Origin: a virus
Taxonomy: Duplodnaviria; Caudoviricetes
Reading direction: 5' to 3' (one strand)
Virus record (IMG/VR): IMGVR_UViG_3300014613_000623
Coordinates: 1 to 41,929 of that record
DNA length: 41,929 nt
In this document: piece after piece, positions 79 to 38,331 of the stretch
Position numbering within the stretch: the stretch's first letter is position 1
How the letters are laid out: every line of letters starts with the position of its first letter
Program-made: the position numbers and the translations under genes
The notes under the pieces: model-generated
What the model was told of the DNA's origin: nothing
What the model saw: the letters and a program-made list of their open reading frames with translations, nothing else
Database searches by the model: none

Positions 79-123
79 TGATCCCGACTGGGCTCGAACC
101 AGCGACCTCCACCCTGTCAAGGT
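79..123 (-). pseudogene. 3' half of tRNA-Val(GAC); putative prophage att core (45 bp)
   Basis: Minus strand reads ACCTTGACAGGGTGGAGGTCGCTGGTTCGAGCCCAGTCGGGATCA: anticodon loop with GAC, T-arm GGTTCGAGCC and 3' acceptor strand; no D-arm or 5' acceptor strand upstream. Confidence 0.9.
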
Positions 124-17911: not shown

Positions 17912-18102
17912 TAGGCGCCTTCATACTCGCCTTCCCAGTAGCTGCTATCGTATGGTCGACCGCTAATCACTACGGTTATGAATTGCCGTACGCACAAGCG
18001 GTCGTCTACGTATTAGTAGCGAAAGTCACCGCGATGTACTTAAAGAACGATACGAACGTTAGCTTGACGGTTGTTAAAGCTGAGGAGGCGGAGGATGGTT
18101 AA
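17908..18102 (+). CDS. Small membrane protein
   Basis: Two hydrophobic segments; ATGA coupling. Confidence 0.55.
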   Translation: MIGAFILAFPVAAIVWSTANHYGYELPYAQAVVYVLVAKVTAMYLKNDTNVSLTVVKAEEAEDG

Positions 18103-18859
18103 ACAATTACTCGGAGAAATTGAGTTAAATCGTATTTACCAACGTGACTGCCTCGAAGGTATGCGGATGATCCCGGACGACACAATCGATATGATTTTAT
18201 GCGATTTACCTTACGGAACCACGCGTAATAAATGGGATACAGTTATACCGTTTGAACCTCTATGGGAACAGTACGCTCGCGTAATAAAAGATAACGGTGC
18301 AATCGTGTTATTTAGCCACGGTTTATTTTCAGCAAAGCTGCAGCTATCAAAAGAAAAATGGTGGCGTTACGATTTAGAGTGGGAAAAGGATAGACCAACG
18401 GGATTCCTTAATGCAAAAAAGATGCCACTTCGTTCACACGAAGATATACAAGTGTTCTATAAAAAACTTCCTGTTTACAACCCACAAATGAGTGTAGGTA
18501 AGCCGTTGCATAGCAAAGGTAGTTCTTATTTGATAAAACCTGCAGTTAATAATAATTACGGAAAATTTGAAGTAACTGATGATTCGCGTAAAGGAAATAC
18601 CGAAAAGTATCCGAGGAGCATTCTGAAGTTCAAGCGTCCTCACCCACCAATCCACCCAACACAAAAACCGGTAGAATTATTTGAGTATCTAATTAAAACA
18701 TATACAAATGAAGGTGATATAGTCCTTGATAATTGCATGGGCAGCGGAACGACCGCAATAGCTGCAGTTAGAAGTAACCGAAACTTTATCGGATTTGAAT
18801 TAGAACGCGAATATGTAGAAATCGCTAATCAACGGTTAGACAACGAAAAGGGGCGGTAA
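18095..18859 (+). CDS. N4-C/N6-A DNA methyltransferase, beta class (copy 1)
   Basis: DLPY, HPTQKP, DNCMGSGTT. Confidence 0.9.
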   Translation: MVKQLLGEIELNRIYQRDCLEGMRMIPDDTIDMILCDLPYGTTRNKWDTVIPFEPLWEQYARVIKDNGAIVLFSHGLFSAKLQLSKEKWWRYDLEWEKDRPTGFLNAKKMPLRSHEDIQVFYKKLPVYNPQMSVGKPLHSKGSSYLIKPAVNNNYGKFEVTDDSRKGNTEKYPRSILKFKRPHPPIHPTQKPVELFEYLIKTYTNEGDIVLDNCMGSGTTAIAAVRSNRNFIGFELEREYVEIANQRLDNEKGR

Positions 18860-29272: not shown

Positions 29273-30055
29273 GTGGGCGATTGTGTGACGAGTTTAGCGA
29301 TTAACGAAATACACGAAGGCGACTGTCTTGAATTGATGAAAGATATTCCGACGGGATCGGTTGATATGATATTATGCGATTTGCCTTATGGGACTACGGA
29401 TATTAAAGGTTGGGATAAATTGATACCTGCCGAAAAGTTATGGGAACAATACAACAGGATTATTAAGGATGATGGGAATATTGTTCTTTTCGGTAGTCAA
29501 CCGTTTACTAGTTATCTGATAGTCAGTAATCCGAAAATGTTCAGATACGAATGGATATGGGATAAAACAAAAGGCGCTAACTTCCTAAACGCAAATCACC
29601 AACCTTTAAAGACGCACGAAAATGTTTTAGTGTTTGCGAAGTTACCGACTAGCCCAAATAGAAAAGGAACGGCAGTTTATAACCCACAAAAAACTGATTT
29701 AGAGAAAAGTTATATATATTCAGATAGCAAAAAAACTAGAAGCCATGCTAACGGAGGTGTTACTAAGGGAGTCGAAAACAAAGAGTTAGTCGGCAAACAC
29801 CCTAAGTCTATCCAGACATTCAAAAAAGACGGTAAGGTGCACCCAACACAAAAACCGGTTAATTTATGCGAATTTCTAATCCGGACTTACACTAAAGAAA
29901 ACGAAGTGGTCCTTGATAACTGCATCGGGTCAGGCACTACGGCCATAGCCGCAATTAACACTAATCGTAACTATATCGGAATAGAACAGGACGTAGGTTA
30001 CGTAGCCATCGCCCGCCAACGTATCGCCGATGCACGCGGAGGTGAACGTACTTGA
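29273..30055 (+). CDS. N4-C/N6-A DNA methyltransferase, beta class (copy 2)
   Basis: DLPY, HPTQKP, DNCIGSGTT; start may be GTG 29285. Confidence 0.9.
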   Translation: MGDCVTSLAINEIHEGDCLELMKDIPTGSVDMILCDLPYGTTDIKGWDKLIPAEKLWEQYNRIIKDDGNIVLFGSQPFTSYLIVSNPKMFRYEWIWDKTKGANFLNANHQPLKTHENVLVFAKLPTSPNRKGTAVYNPQKTDLEKSYIYSDSKKTRSHANGGVTKGVENKELVGKHPKSIQTFKKDGKVHPTQKPVNLCEFLIRTYTKENEVVLDNCIGSGTTAIAAINTNRNYIGIEQDVGYVAIARQRIADARGGERT

Positions 30056-30490: not shown

Positions 30491-31237
30491 ATGACGAAGA
30501 AACTACTAGGCGAATTAGAATTAAACCGTATATATCAGCGTGATGGGATCGAGGGAATGAAGTTAATACCGGATAAGTCAATTGATATGATTTTATGCGA
30601 CTTACCGTATGGGACTACACGTAATAAGTGGGATTCAATAATCCCGTTCGACGAGTTATGGACGCAATATGAGCGCGTAATAAAAGATAACGGCGCAATT
30701 GTTTTAACCTGCAGTCAACCGTTTACGACCGCGTTAAATCAATCTAATCCGTCATTATACCGATATGAATGGATATGGATTAAAAATAACACTACCGGAT
30801 TCCAATTGGCGAATAAACGTCCGTTAAAGAAACACGAAAATATAAGCGTTTTCTATAAGAAACAACCTACGTATAATCCGCAAGGACTCAAGGAATACGG
30901 AAAAGAGAATCGTCGAGGTTCGACGGGAGAGAATTGGTCGGAAATGAAGTCGGATAGCTACGTTCAAAAGTTTACGAATTACCCTACGCAAATTCTTGAG
31001 TTCGCTTATGATTCCGACAAGTACCACCCAACTCAAAAGCCCGTCGACTTATTCGCGTACTTAATCAAGACATATACGAACGAAGGCGAAACGGTACTCG
31101 ACAACTGCATGGGTAGCGGAACAACAGCGGTAGCAGCCGTTCGCAATAACCGTAATTTCATCGGATTTGAACTCGAAAGGGAATACGTAGAAATCGCTAA
31201 TAAACGCTTGGATAACGAAACGGAGGTCAACGAATGA
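30491..31237 (+). CDS. N4-C/N6-A DNA methyltransferase, beta class (copy 3)
   Basis: DLPY, HPTQKP, DNCMGSGTT. Confidence 0.9.
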   Translation: MTKKLLGELELNRIYQRDGIEGMKLIPDKSIDMILCDLPYGTTRNKWDSIIPFDELWTQYERVIKDNGAIVLTCSQPFTTALNQSNPSLYRYEWIWIKNNTTGFQLANKRPLKKHENISVFYKKQPTYNPQGLKEYGKENRRGSTGENWSEMKSDSYVQKFTNYPTQILEFAYDSDKYHPTQKPVDLFAYLIKTYTNEGETVLDNCMGSGTTAVAAVRNNRNFIGFELEREYVEIANKRLDNETEVNE

Positions 31238-32017: not shown

Positions 32018-32503
32018 ATGAACGGACAAACGAAAAAAGGCGCGTTACCATTCGAAGTCGAGCGTGGATTTACGCAAGTACCTAATGCAGTTATGCGCCA
32101 TTATCAATATTATCCGAAGTTTAACGGAAGTACGACGAATGTATATGCGTTTCTATTATCGCAGTTTAATAGCGCGTTCGGCTACGCATTTCCTACGCAT
32201 GTTCACGTTGCACAGGCGGTTAACATGACGGAGAAAACGGCGCGAGGACATATACGGTTACTTGAGGAAGTCGGCTTGATAACGGTAGTGGAAAACGGTC
32301 GATTCGGAAACCATACGTATACATTTAATACGCCGATTGAAGTAGCGGAGGAATTCTACGCTAAGTTTCCGCAGGCTGGCGAATGTAAGCGTAAGTCAGA
32401 CGAAACATGGGCGAAGATATTACCGGATAAAATCGCTAGGAAAGCGGAGTTATTAGCGAGTGAGAATACGGAATTAGACGAAGATACGCTTAACTGGCTA
32501 TAA
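32018..32503 (+). CDS. Winged-HTH replication-initiator-like protein
   Basis: FTQVPN, VYAFL, YAFPT, T...HI..LEE.GLI; followed by iteron-like repeats. Confidence 0.75.
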   Translation: MNGQTKKGALPFEVERGFTQVPNAVMRHYQYYPKFNGSTTNVYAFLLSQFNSAFGYAFPTHVHVAQAVNMTEKTARGHIRLLEEVGLITVVENGRFGNHTYTFNTPIEVAEEFYAKFPQAGECKRKSDETWAKILPDKIARKAELLASENTELDEDTLNWL

Positions 32504-32718
32504 CGTCCGGTAATTATTACCGTCACGTCCGGTAGTTTTTACCGTTCGTACCGGTAATTATTACTCCGTATATATACTTACTTACTAATACTTACGTATA
32601 AAGACTTACAATATAGCGTCAGCTAAAGCTAACGCAGATATTATCGTATATATCTGAACGATAGAACTTAAGTGAATACGACAAAGAGATACAACGTCCG
32701 GTAATTATTACCGTTCGT
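32503..32718 (+). repeat. Iteron-like array, AT-rich repeats and conserved palindrome (putative origin 2)
   Basis: 22-bp unit ACGTCCGGTAATTATTACCGTY at 32503, 32525, 32547 (variants) and 32694; ACTTAC x4; GCGTCAGCTAAAGCTAACGC at 32616-32635. Confidence 0.7.
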
Positions 32719-32771: not shown

Positions 32772-32867
32772 ATGGCGAAGTTAAACGATAAGCAATACGC
32801 AGCAACGTTACATTACGTTTGTTATCGCTCTTATATAGAAGGAACGCATAATATATCGAGTGCATAG
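32772..32867 (+). pseudogene. 31-codon ORF, possibly the remnant of a small-terminase-type HTH gene
   Basis: GGAGGTG RBS and MAKLNDKQYAA start, then an early stop. Confidence 0.35.
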
Positions 32868-33121
32868 CGTAACGGAACGGTGGACAGCGGTAGTATCGTT
32901 TAATTAGGCGAGCCGTTCACCGCGGACAGCCCGATGAAAACCGGCTACTCTCGTCAAATAGCGTATGCATAGCGTATACATTACGTATGCTCGTGTGTGT
33001 TCGCTTACTAAACGTAAGTGTACGGTATGACTGCGTTGAAGGCGTGTGCATAAACGATGTATATTCGTTAAATTAGTGGCAGTTGCGAAACGTTGATACG
33101 GATAGGGTTCGAGATTAATCT

Positions 33122-33149
33122 AGTTGACATAATGTTAATTATGGGAAGC
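33122..33149 (-). other. dif-like Xer recombination core site
   Basis: Minus strand GCTTCCCATAA-TTAACA-TTATGTCAACT; arms match 8/11 and 10/11 to B. subtilis dif as recalled (ACTTCCTAGAA-TATATA-TTATGTAAACT). Confidence 0.75.
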
Positions 33150-33153
33150 TACG

Positions 33154-33171
33154 ATTGCATAGATATGCAGA
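33154..33171. promoter_or_regulatory. ARG-box-like (ArgR/AhrC) palindrome
   Basis: ATTGCATAGATATGCAGA = TGCAT-N4-ATGCA. Confidence 0.5.
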
Positions 33172-33298
33172 CGGTATTCAAGCGGTCATGTCTGCGAAAA
33201 TGGGGGCGCCATCGGAATTTCAGAGCCGCGTCACCTTACGTCAGCGTTTTTCTTGCAGAAATTTAAACCCGGACACTCAACGGAATACATACGGAATC

Positions 33299-33330: not shown

Positions 33331-33393
33331 ATGCGCTACTGCCGGACACCAAGCGGTAGCATAACGAATTAAAACGGAACAGGAGGCGATAAC

Positions 33394-33828
33394 ATGGCGA
33401 AATCAAGACGCGATAAACTATCGGAGTCACTTACGGTAGCACAGCAGAAAGCAGCGTATCTTCTATTAGAAAACGAAATGCTTCCGACGGCTGAACAACG
33501 TACGCAGGAACAGATAGCGAAGGAAGTCGGAGTTGACCGTATTTCTTTGTACCGTTGGCGCAAGGAGAATCAAGCGTTCATCGAATTCAAGAAGGAAATC
33601 GCGAAGGATTACCTTTCGGATGCAGTCGGTATATTTGCGAAACAGTTAATACGCTCTATCGAAGGTACTAACGGAGTTCCTTCATCGAAAGCGCTCGATC
33701 TTTACGCGAAGATGATGGGCTTCATCAAGTCGGAACACAGCGTAGAAATTACGCAAGGTGGCGCGAAATCAAACGAACAAATCACGGAAGAACTAGCGGA
33801 ATTAGACGAATTATTAAAAGACGAATAA
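33394..33828 (+). CDS. terS: Terminase small subunit (HTH type)
   Basis: LT..Q.KAA.LL, TQEQIAKEVGV.R.SLYRW; directly upstream of terL. Confidence 0.8.
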   Translation: MAKSRRDKLSESLTVAQQKAAYLLLENEMLPTAEQRTQEQIAKEVGVDRISLYRWRKENQAFIEFKKEIAKDYLSDAVGIFAKQLIRSIEGTNGVPSSKALDLYAKMMGFIKSEHSVEITQGGAKSNEQITEELAELDELLKDE

Positions 33829-33843: not shown

Positions 33844-35553
33844 ATGGCGTATGTAGATGGCGAATGGCTTGCGTTTGAAGCGCGCGCTGAACGTATTGAG
33901 TTACTGACGGAGAAATTCGATAAGCTACGAAAAGGTTTCGAAAAGGGCGTTTTAACTGACGGTCTAAAAGCGGAAATGCTCGATACGGGACGTGAGTTAA
34001 AACGTCTGAAACGTGTGCATCGCGGAGAATATGACGTACTTTACTTTACTTACGAATATTTCAGCGGTGAACGCAATGACGCCAACGTATCGAATTTAAT
34101 ACCGTCGCCTCAAACATTAGAAGGCGCTGCGGACTTCCATAAGGAATTATGCGGACTTCTCGACGAGGTAACGAAGGGGAATATCGATACGCATATCGGT
34201 TGGTCGGTAGGACGTAAGCATGCGAAGACGGCGTATTTAAGTAACGCTTATTTATGTCATCAAATCGTATACCGTCTTCAGCGCTACATTATTGAAGTGT
34301 CGGAAACGACGGACGTAGCGGGCGACTTTATCAAGTGGACGGTTAATCAATTAAAATTTAACGATAAGCTACGTGAGGACTTCGGTTCTTTATTGCATCC
34401 GAAGCCATCTATGAACGAAATCGATAATAAATACGAATTCATAACGTCAACAGGTACGAAGGTAGAAGCGAAGGGTATCGGTACGCAGATGCGCGGACTA
34501 CGCCATCTATCCGACCGCCCCGGACTTTTCATTCTCGACGATTTAGAATCCGGCGACAATACGAATACACCGGAACTACGTGCAAAGAACTTACGGTGGT
34601 TCCGTTCGGAAATGTTAGAGGCATTAGATTTCGGCGGGCGTTGTATCTATATGGGGACGATAGTCCACTACGACAGTCTTTTAAATCACGTTATTACGAA
34701 GCGTAAGGATTTCACGTCGCGTAAGTTTCCGGCTATATTGTCGTGGTCTGAACGCGAAGACTTATGGGACGAATGGCGGAAGTTATATAACGCGGATGAT
34801 CCGAACGCAGTCATTAACGCAGAGGCGTTTTTTAAAACGAATGAAGATGCTATGCTGCGAGGCTCGTCCGTATTATGGGCGGAAAAGTATTCGTATAAGT
34901 ATTTCATGGAAAAACTCGAAGCAATGGGCGCTAGAGCGTTCAATCAAGAGTACCTCGGTAATCCGGTCGACGAGGAATCGCAAGTGTTCAAAGCGGAAGA
35001 CTTCGTTTACTACACGGATAGCGATATTGAAAACGGTGAATTCACATATTACGCTGCCGTCGATTTAGCGATGGGAAAAACACGCGGAGATTACTCGGCA
35101 ATCATTACGCTGGCGAAACGGAACTCAACGGATATTTGCTACGTAGTAGACGCTCATATCGTTAAAGCGAAGCCGGACGAATTCATGAAAGATATCGTAA
35201 GTCGAACTCTTCATTATCAATACGAAGCATTAGCGGTAGAATCGCAGGCTTTCCAAGAATACTTCGCAGACGAATTAGGTAAAGCGTTACAACGCGTAGG
35301 ATATCCCGCAAATACACGCTTAAAGCAAGTTAAACAAAAGATACGCAAGCAATTACGTATTGAATCGTTAGAACCGGACATTAAAGCCGGTCGCATACGT
35401 TTTAAAAAGGATCAACGCTTATTACTCGAAATGCTCGAACTTTATCCGAATCATAATAACGACGATGGACCGGATGCGTTATCAGACGCGTTTAAAATAG
35501 CGAAGTCAAATAACGTTGTTGTTCGGACAGTTAATCGAGGTTCACGATGGTAA
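33844..35553 (+). CDS. terL: Terminase large subunit
   Basis: GRKHAKT, RG, ILDDLE, MGT, F.QEY, AVDLA, ESQAFQ, DDGPDA. Confidence 0.93.
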   Translation: MAYVDGEWLAFEARAERIELLTEKFDKLRKGFEKGVLTDGLKAEMLDTGRELKRLKRVHRGEYDVLYFTYEYFSGERNDANVSNLIPSPQTLEGAADFHKELCGLLDEVTKGNIDTHIGWSVGRKHAKTAYLSNAYLCHQIVYRLQRYIIEVSETTDVAGDFIKWTVNQLKFNDKLREDFGSLLHPKPSMNEIDNKYEFITSTGTKVEAKGIGTQMRGLRHLSDRPGLFILDDLESGDNTNTPELRAKNLRWFRSEMLEALDFGGRCIYMGTIVHYDSLLNHVITKRKDFTSRKFPAILSWSEREDLWDEWRKLYNADDPNAVINAEAFFKTNEDAMLRGSSVLWAEKYSYKYFMEKLEAMGARAFNQEYLGNPVDEESQVFKAEDFVYYTDSDIENGEFTYYAAVDLAMGKTRGDYSAIITLAKRNSTDICYVVDAHIVKAKPDEFMKDIVSRTLHYQYEALAVESQAFQEYFADELGKALQRVGYPANTRLKQVKQKIRKQLRIESLEPDIKAGRIRFKKDQRLLLEMLELYPNHNNDDGPDALSDAFKIAKSNNVVVRTVNRGSRW

Positions 35554-37424: not shown

Positions 37425-37583
37425 ATGGCGGGCAATAAGTCGCGCGAAGTAGGCAAGTTAAACGTAAAAGTCGAGGTAGACGTATCGGAGGCACTAACGG
37501 GATTAAAGGCGTTACAACGTGAGGCACGAGAAGCTACGAAGGCATTGCGCGAGTTAGAGGCGGTGCAACGTAATGCTGAATAA
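37425..37583 (+). CDS. Small phage protein (52 aa)
   Basis: GAGG RBS; VDVSEALTGLKALQREAREATKALRELE. Confidence 0.6.
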   Translation: MAGNKSREVGKLNVKVEVDVSEALTGLKALQREAREATKALRELEAVQRNAE

Positions 37584-38331
37584 AATTACGCAAGGTGACG
37601 CTATTGAAGAAATGCGGAAGTTATCGGATAAGTCGGTCGATATGATTCTTTGCGATTTGCCGTATGGCACTACGGAATGTAAATGGGATACGATAATCCC
37701 GTTCGAGCCGTTGTGGGCGGAATATGAAAGAATAATAAAAGATAACGGCGCTATTGTATTAACCGCAAGTCAGCCGTTTACTACCGCATTAATATCGTCT
37801 AAAATGGCTTTATTTCGGTACGAATTAATTTGGGATAAAACATTCGGCAGGCAACCGCAGTTAGCGAATGTACAGCCTATGAAGCGTCATGAGAATATAC
37901 TCATATTTGCGAAAAAGGGATTCGGAAAGATAACGTACAACCCACAAAAAGAGCCGTTAGAAAAACCGTATAAGGGTGGTGGGGCAAGTAACAAAACGAG
38001 CGGTGTAAATGACCACGGGATAAGACTAAAGAAGTTGCCTAAGACGTATACGCACAAAACACCGACGTCAGTATTATCCTTCAAGCCTCCGAGTAATGGC
38101 GTATCCTTACACCCAACACAGAAACCAACGGAATTATTTGAGTACCTAATACGGACGTATTCAAACGAAGGTGACGTAATTCTCGATAATTGCATAGGAA
38201 GCGGAACCACCGCAGTCGCCGCAATTAATACCGGTCGCCAATTCATCGGAATAGAACGCGAAGCGGAATACTGCCAAATCGCAAGACAACGTATCGCCGA
38301 CGCTTTACAGACGGAAGTCGGCGGTAACTAA
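37573..38331 (+). CDS. N4-C/N6-A DNA methyltransferase, beta class (copy 4)
   Basis: DLPY, HPTQKP, DNCIGSGTT. Confidence 0.9.
   Translation: MLNKITQGDAIEEMRKLSDKSVDMILCDLPYGTTECKWDTIIPFEPLWAEYERIIKDNGAIVLTASQPFTTALISSKMALFRYELIWDKTFGRQPQLANVQPMKRHENILIFAKKGFGKITYNPQKEPLEKPYKGGGASNKTSGVNDHGIRLKKLPKTYTHKTPTSVLSFKPPSNGVSLHPTQKPTELFEYLIRTYSNEGDVILDNCIGSGTTAVAAINTGRQFIGIEREAEYCQIARQRIADALQTEVGGN

Follow-up and report, generated by a model that had tools for sequence, protein, structure and literature searches.

The locus and its genes

The DNA considered here, called the window throughout, is the whole 41,929-base stretch of the virus record IMGVR_UViG_3300014613_000623. It corresponds to the left two thirds of a prophage of the phBC6A51/Mgbh1-like family from the Bacillus group. 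Named hosts of this family belong to the Bacillaceae and the Paenibacillaceae. The window carries replication genes, a DNA polymerase A, four DNA methylases, the small and large terminase subunits (terS and terL), a portal and a capsid gene. Its TerL is 56% identical to that of phBC6A51, 50% to that of Mgbh1 and 40% to that of Halcyone. The four methylase genes (18071-18859, 29273-30055, 30491-31237 and 37573-38331) are related to one another and are of the N6/N4 type.

Between the end of a helix-turn-helix (HTH) gene at 32503 and the start of terS at 33394 lies a gap of 890 bp. It holds a site resembling dif, the site at which the host Xer recombinases CodV and RipX act on the chromosome. This site and the elements around it are listed in Table 1.

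Table 1. Coordinates of the features discussed in the text
Feature	Position	Strand	Basis and remarks
3' part of tRNA-Val(GAC), prophage attachment junction	79..121	-	2 mismatches to the Bacillus halotolerans site, where ARAGORN reports tRNA-Val(gac)
HTH / replication-initiator-like gene	32018..32503	+	PHROG matches; borders the gap on its left; Sporosarcina phage Lietuvens is arranged alike
Predicted direct terminal repeat, ~326 bp	32908..33233		Held-out landmark model and alignment to the phi18-2 repeat; right end uncertain by ~7 bp
Left-end landmark	32908..32949	+	Lines up with the first base of the phi18-2 record, in which the initial 309 bp recur at the end
TGYATA-type hexamer pair, upstream	33047..33063	+	N5 spacing, not ARG geometry; same offset in most relatives; 6-8 mismatches to ARG consensus sequences
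Conserved accessory motif AAACG.TG.TATG.CAAGGGTT	33086..33111	+	10 bp before the core
dif-like Xer core, 11-6-11, 28 bp	33122..33149	-	CodV/XerC arm 33139-33149; spacer 33133-33138; RipX/XerD arm 33122-33132
Three ATGCAT-like hexamers ~10 bp apart (33156, 33165, 33176)	33156..33180	+	The 'ARG box' is elements 1 and 2
G-tract and C-AAAAT-type landmark bracketing the right end	33202..33263	+	Spaced as they are at the ends of the Lietuvens, 268TH002, phi18-2 and Halcyone repeats
Terminase small subunit (terS), phBC6A51 type	33394..33828	+	phrog_7344, PF13022
Terminase large subunit (terL), phBC6A51/Mgbh1/Halcyone family	33844..35553	+	phrog_38

Apart from these elements, the gap has few recognizable features. 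BLASTN against cultured phages returns a single match, to Lietuvens, at 32507-32619. Four CCGGTAATTATTAC-type repeats, three of them at 22-bp spacing, stand just 3' of the HTH gene (32499-32714) and are common to Lietuvens; they are iteron-like and possibly mark a candidate replication origin. No RNA gene was found in the gap by Rfam at E values up to 1, a search that missed the tRNA fragment too. A promoter reading of the gap was rejected, with one sigma-70-like site found where 2.4 are expected.

The original prediction placed prophage integration at a tRNA, apart from the Xer site, and this is borne out by the junction near the left end of the window, which differs from the 3' part of a tRNA-Val(GAC) at two positions. 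ARAGORN finds no whole tRNA in the window. Genes for an integrase or for any other tyrosine or serine recombinase are likewise absent from the window, which ends within the head genes; an integrase (PF00589) stands at the record end in two of three complete dif-bearing relatives.

The dif-like core

As had been proposed, the gap before terS contains an 11-6-11 site close to Bacillus dif. Compared with the published B. subtilis dif (PMC3025954), it matches 8/11 positions in the CodV arm, 3/6 in the spacer and 10/11 in the RipX arm. For five dif-like sites from host genomes that have the published spacer, TATATA, the corresponding matches are 8-9, 3 and 9-10. When a pattern taken from one host dif-like site is searched with three mismatches allowed, this core is the sole match in the window, with 0 expected from 100 shuffles. 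Judged by its arms, the core is likely to be a site of the host CodV/RipX type, to which these proteins would bind.

Conservation of the core among relatives was examined through TerL searches, which gave 66 genome loci and 80 viral loci. Six distant non-Bacillota loci and two short viral ones were left out. The remaining 138 loci were scanned together with the window; 136 of these showed a TerL frame of more than 300 aa, and for 121 the upstream DNA sufficed for scoring. The dif profile was built from 37 sites that partly come from family members, so the scores of those members are partly circular.

A dif-like core is present in 42 of the 121 scorable loci. It lies upstream of terL in every one of them, at distances of 212 to 3395 bp, and no locus reaches 13 bits or more downstream of terL. 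Both phBC6A51 and Mgbh1 have one core each, upstream of terS. The proposed tie between the site and the packaging region stands; the arginine status to which it had also been tied is taken up below.

Among 31 distinct cores, most arm positions are conserved at 0.8-1.0, and the RipX arm is the best conserved part. The spacer is always 6 bp long, with 27 different sequences. Conserved arms with free spacers are what self-to-self recombination between identical copies allows. The core is also free to turn, as 13 of the 31 are flipped relative to terS.

A non-host spacer would be expected to prevent recombination of the site with chromosomal dif. None of the 31 family cores has the host TATATA, and the tRNA-Val junction lies elsewhere, which supports the earlier view that the core is not an integration site.

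Flanking elements

The elements of the gap follow a fixed order towards terS: the left landmark, the TGYATA pair, a 26-bp accessory motif, the core, three ATGCAT-like hexamers, a tract of G or C, and the C-AAAAT landmark. One locus (L002:3146-3290) has the core and hexamer array tandemly duplicated, with N in the second copy, and this is probably an assembly artefact.

Of 38 distinct dif loci, 33 have the accessory motif at more than 8 bits, and in 30 of those 33 the core is 10-11 or 22-23 bp away. These distances suggest helical phasing. The motif is found at none of six host-genome dif loci and near 13 of 46 distinct viral pattern hits, against a background of 11 of 300. An identity as an IHF site was considered and dropped, since the strict IHF consensus occurs in only one of the 38 loci and is absent from the window.

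On the terS side of the core, TGCAT-N4-ATGCA occurs at 33156-33169. The 18-mer around it (33154-33171) begins 4 bp from the CodV arm, where the original prediction had placed it, and is the sole exact copy in the window. With one mismatch allowed, two places are found where 0.57 are expected; 10 of 100 shuffles also reach two, so the count is not clearly above chance. Related boxes had been listed at 32966, 33047 and 33166. These are present, but the relaxed pattern that finds them matches 11 places in the window, four of them in the gap, and the boxes differ at 6 to 11 of 18 positions from every published ARG consensus. The consensus sequences for B. subtilis, E. coli and Streptomyces used in this scoring are from PMC5291005 and PMC4865122.

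The scan of relatives for core, box and spacing gave a mixed answer. The core is kept, as described above, and the array is present, but its spacing varies from N4 to N6 and its side does not depend on the XerC arm. Where the XerC arm faces the array, 20 loci were scored, of which 12 have N4 as the first gap and 7 have N5; all 12 flipped loci that were scored have N5 or N6. The array remains on the terS side in both orientations of the core. Patterns searched across the whole collection place the box on the XerD side in nine contigs and on the XerC side in four. The same array also follows tyrosine-recombinase cores that are not of the Xer type, in 6 of 13 loci by the strict pattern and also in phi18-2, 268TH002 and Lietuvens. 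The motif and the array are probably sites for an accessory protein, for bending or loading, that is common to the non-Xer versions.

Host dif loci can have flanking elements of another kind. The palindrome GTCTCA-N7-AGTATACT-N7-TGAGAC lies 15-60 bp from the XerC arm at three Bacillus host dif loci (L240, L241 and L247). It also stands beside a dif-like site on a B. velezensis plasmid (L263) and is absent beside the window core.

Location within a predicted terminal repeat

Several phages of the family have mapped direct terminal repeats (DTRs), of 310 bp in 268TH002, 309 bp in phi18-2 and 437 bp in Lietuvens; a repeat of 377 bp is given for Halcyone (PMC6256684). Landmark profiles were seeded on the ends of these four genomes, and each 90% TerL cluster was held out in turn. 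In this leave-one-cluster-out test the core falls inside the predicted repeat at 35 of 38 distinct dif loci, in 19 of 22 clusters. A model trained without any dif locus has 30 of 38 cores inside the repeat, where 3.5 would be expected. With an initial right-end profile that had no subfamily seeds, 28 of the 38 cores were inside and the right end of the window repeat was misplaced at 33210. A partly circular run, since superseded, gave 36 of 38 and a window repeat at 32907-33232.

For the window itself the held-out prediction (32908-33233), obtained by searching up to 5 kb from terL, scores weakly (7 and 6 bits). The dif-free model missed the repeat of the window, for which a search of the whole window chose another place. 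Alignment provides a second line of evidence. Base 1 of phi18-2 aligns at about 32908, and the core of the phi18-2 recombinase occupies the same columns as the dif core. The window core is thus predicted to lie inside a DTR, and virion DNA would carry two copies of it.

Assembled reads are neutral on this point. Logan contigs of four runs have no pile-up of ends, and contigs cannot show ends. One contig (run X2) matches 32801-33242, continues with 970 other letters and rejoins at 33333; its departure is near the predicted right end, again with the reservation that contigs cannot show ends. In one relative (L153) the inner module is inverted within the predicted repeat, with the core 79 bp from the left end and the motif on the terS side.

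Exchange with phage-encoded recombinases

Some sister phages encode an enzyme of their own at this place. Lietuvens, phi18-2, 268TH002, KLEB27-1 and PK2 have a small tyrosine recombinase beside terL or terS, and PHBA67-T has a Hin-like resolvase there. None of these six has a dif core by the profile. The 121 loci divide into 42 with the dif core alone, 13 with a small tyrosine recombinase, 20 with a serine resolvase and 46 with none of these; 0 combine a core with an enzyme within 2.6 kb of terL. Counted by 90% TerL clusters, the figures for core, enzyme, none and both are 22/21/32/0 (Fisher p=1.8e-4, in a test that ignores kinship beyond the 90% clustering). The recombinase families of the swap loci were confirmed. 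At the dif locus L201 a tyrosine recombinase is encoded 2.9-3.3 kb upstream, beyond the 2.6-kb cut-off.

The states alternate between sister taxa, with 17 changes among 21 dif rows on a quick TerL tree, and dif and resolvase members occur together in two 90% TerL clusters. Of 16 distinct serine-resolvase loci, 12 have their resolvase gene enclosed by the best-scoring landmarks, and in 10 of these both scores are at least 10. A slot in this family is filled by an Xer core or, in sister phages, by a site-specific recombinase system.

Many of the loci scored as having none belong to Paenibacillaceae; judged by eye, their slot contains either a diverged dif or a third type of 11-6-11 core. The third core has the form TGTRCAAAA-N6-TTTTGTRCA. 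It lies about 75-160 bp before the predicted right end in L100, L112, L126, L128, L132, L138 and other Paenibacillaceae prophages.

Similar cores outside the family

The unrelated phage Blastoid carries a core at 739-766 and again at 50263-50290, within both of its annotated 830-bp repeats. This site (L088:739-766) is identical to a dif-like site in the B. paralicheniformis genome, including the TATATA spacer. Being a host-type dif, it could in principle recombine with host dif. The B. pumilus phages Eoghan, Taylor, Finn, Riggi and Novomoskovsk have the core at two places each, near 740, and MVC_VPHSA1 has two copies near the ends of its record.

Of 52 IMG/VR pattern hits, 14 apparent near-copies were left out and the neighbours of the other 38 were scanned. 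A terminase lies within 2 kb in 13 of the 38, a portal in 10 and neither in 15. On contigs of about 4-22 kb, an SPP1-type portal is followed immediately by a dif-like core (L026, L058, L030, L031, L032, L037, L051, L068, L070, L071 and look-alikes); these portal-plus-core elements look like satellites.

As exceptions, Listeria P70, Enterococcus 9181 and PJN02 have dif-like cores without an annotated terminase nearby. In PJN02, a 166-kb phage, a reverse-transcriptase-like gene is followed immediately by the core, where the coding strand changes (L094:1916-3028). Some Bacillota plasmids also have dif-like cores; two of the four plasmid matches (L262 and L264) are without a profile score. A BLAST match in the jumbo phage MarsHill was discarded at a profile score of just 6 bits.

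Proposed function and alternatives

The most probable use of the site, at a rough probability of 55%, is the circularisation of injected DNA by CodV and RipX through recombination of the two end copies. Virion DNA would carry the core twice, in direct repeat, within the DTR of about 326 bp. Host CodV and RipX would recombine both copies to give a circle with one repeat. The circle would then be used for integration at tRNA-Val and for replication, and its dimers could afterwards be resolved at this site as well. Because the two end copies are identical, the spacer and the orientation of the core would both be free. In B. subtilis, native Xer is known to excise cassettes flanked by directly repeated dif sites at ectopic positions (PMC4030025), and direct activation of CodV/RipX by SftA or SpoIIIE is not known (PMC5357621).

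The original prediction assigned the site to the resolution of multimers of the excised circle. This remains a fair second job. With the core probably inside a DTR, the main job shifts towards the joining of virion ends.

Resolution may also be the only job, a possibility that carries distinctly less weight than end joining. The site would act on a supercoiled circle, after excision or theta replication, the flanks would be a topological filter bound by host proteins, and circularisation would be left to homologous recombination. A repeat of 326 bp can indeed be joined by homologous recombination too. Small serine resolvases normally need supercoiled DNA, and a resolvase gene inside the predicted repeat may therefore mean that the slot serves dimer resolution rather than the joining of linear ends. 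Resolvases with res-like upstream DNA in the same slot, the helical phasing of the flanking motif to the core (10-11 or 22-23 bp) and the similar cores on Bacillota plasmids all agree with resolution, as does the finding that cer-type synapses are favoured by negative supercoiling (PMC5357621). What resolution alone leaves unexplained is the location in end repeats of 300-450 bp, predicted at 35 of 38 loci and matched by Blastoid, since any position on a circle would serve.

Alternatively, Xer could join daughter genomes via their repeats into concatemers for packaging, or aid the processing of the repeats during packaging. The chemistry and the site inside the repeat would be the same, and the link with terminase and portal genes is strong. 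Resolvases favour intramolecular reactions, and the resolvases that substitute for the core speak against such joining. It is an improbable account of the site.

Slightly less probable still is a cer-like site with AhrC on the adjacent box and arginine-dependent resolution, as the original prediction had it. The window box differs at three of 18 positions from both the E. coli and the Streptomyces consensus, terS-side flanks fit the ARG consensus better than shuffles do (for E. coli, 5.05 against 5.74 +/- 0.13 mismatches), and the N4 spacing prevails where the XerC arm faces the box, including all four XerC-side matches in the collection. Against AhrC, the box has six mismatches to the B. subtilis consensus, and none of the 38 dif loci has a terS-side box within three. 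The N5 and N6 gaps of the flipped loci, and N5 in 7 of the 20 unflipped ones, do not fit either. With 13 of 31 cores flipped, the array tracks terS and not the XerC arm, and it follows non-Xer cores as well. The cer-like identity and the link to arginine find little support, and the accessory protein is probably not AhrC. The spacer of 6 bp also differs from the 8 bp of cer (PMC5357621).

Least probable is a non-catalytic dock for RipX and CodV (for SMC unloading or end protection, for example) or a spare integration site for host dif in the manner of IMEX (mobile elements that exploit Xer to integrate): the RipX arm is indeed the best conserved, and the Blastoid site with its TATATA would allow dif integration in that phage, but the two arms and their 6-bp distance are preserved, sister phages have catalytic systems in place of the site, no family core has the host spacer and the window has its own tRNA-Val junction.

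Circularisation by Xer at the terminal repeats can be extended to a wider and more tentative proposal, to which we give less than even odds. In short-DTR tailed phages of Bacillota, an exchangeable slot (dif core, mini tyrosine-recombinase core or serine resolvase) together with a phased accessory module may let Xer close linear DNA without FtsK or SpoIIIE. RipX and CodV would then be host factors in the infection by both temperate phages and Andromedaviruses.

Comparison with known systems

Chromosomal dif. The window core shares with the CodV/RipX site of B. subtilis the 28-bp 11-6-11 design and most of its arm positions (8/11 and 10/11). It differs in being located on a phage by the terminase genes, in a spacer that is not TATATA (3/6) and in a flanking motif that is absent from all six host dif loci.

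Plasmid sites. Like ColE1 cer and pSC101 psi, which use XerCD with PepA and either ArgR or ArcA, the window site is on a mobile element, would rely on host Xer and is flanked by accessory-like DNA. Unlike in these sites, its spacer is 6 bp, its flanks ignore the orientation of the core and the match to the host ARG consensus is poor. The accessory DNA of cer is on the XerC side. The central region of psi is itself 6 bp, so the mismatch in spacer length excludes cer only. In cer the central region is 8 bp and the accessory DNA about 180 bp (PMC5357621).

IMEX. The CTX, VGJ and TLC phages and gokushoviruses also have a phage-borne dif-like site and borrow host Xer. They integrate at dif, often with a degenerate XerD arm and a longer spacer (PMC3025954). 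In the present case, by contrast, conservation is highest in the XerD arm, the spacer measures 6 bp, and the prophage integrates at tRNA-Val.

Phage-encoded modules. The tyrosine-recombinase and serine-resolvase modules of Lietuvens, phi18-2, 268TH002, KLEB27-1, PK2 and PHBA67-T occupy the same slot by the terminase genes, and the tyrosine type has the same flanking motif and array as the window. These modules differ in encoding their own enzyme, and the tyrosine type has a GTAAC-N13-GTTAC core.

P1 Cre/lox. The Cre/loxP system of P1 cyclises terminally redundant DNA and also resolves dimers; its site lies near the packaging origin and is present twice in virion DNA. In the proposed role, the window site would be alike in all of these respects: a site near the packaging origin, two virion copies, and use in both circularisation and dimer resolution. 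Two direct copies at the ends, as for lox in P1, are seen in Blastoid and are predicted from landmarks for the window. The differences are that a host pair of two Xer proteins would replace the phage enzyme, and that a fixed short repeat takes the place of the headful redundancy of P1. The window site is therefore best described by analogy, as neither cer nor IMEX nor chromosomal dif, and in its proposed role as Cre/lox-like with a borrowed enzyme.

No description of dif sites in the terminal repeats of tailed phages was found in the literature, as covered by titles, the openings of abstracts and few subscription papers. Xer is not mentioned in the available part of the T5 preprint by Davison (bioRxiv 10.1101/866236). 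Further background can be found in PMC8026635, PMC9703825, PMC5135824 and PMC11769102. What is new here is the exclusive swap across the family, the landmark test of the core in the repeat and the case against AhrC.

Implications

The closing or joining of ends after injection is usually left to homologous recombination in short-DTR phages. If the proposed role of the core is true, a large group of Bacillota phages closes its DNA with the chromosome-dimer resolvase of the host. Mobile DNA would then be using Xer in a third way, in addition to resolving plasmids and integrating IMEX. The role would also explain what the small recombinases beside terL do in Lietuvens, phi18-2 and 268TH002, and the sequence could serve to mark genome ends in prophages that are unassembled. 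Finally, the role would point to an additional accessory protein for Xer in Gram-positive bacteria.
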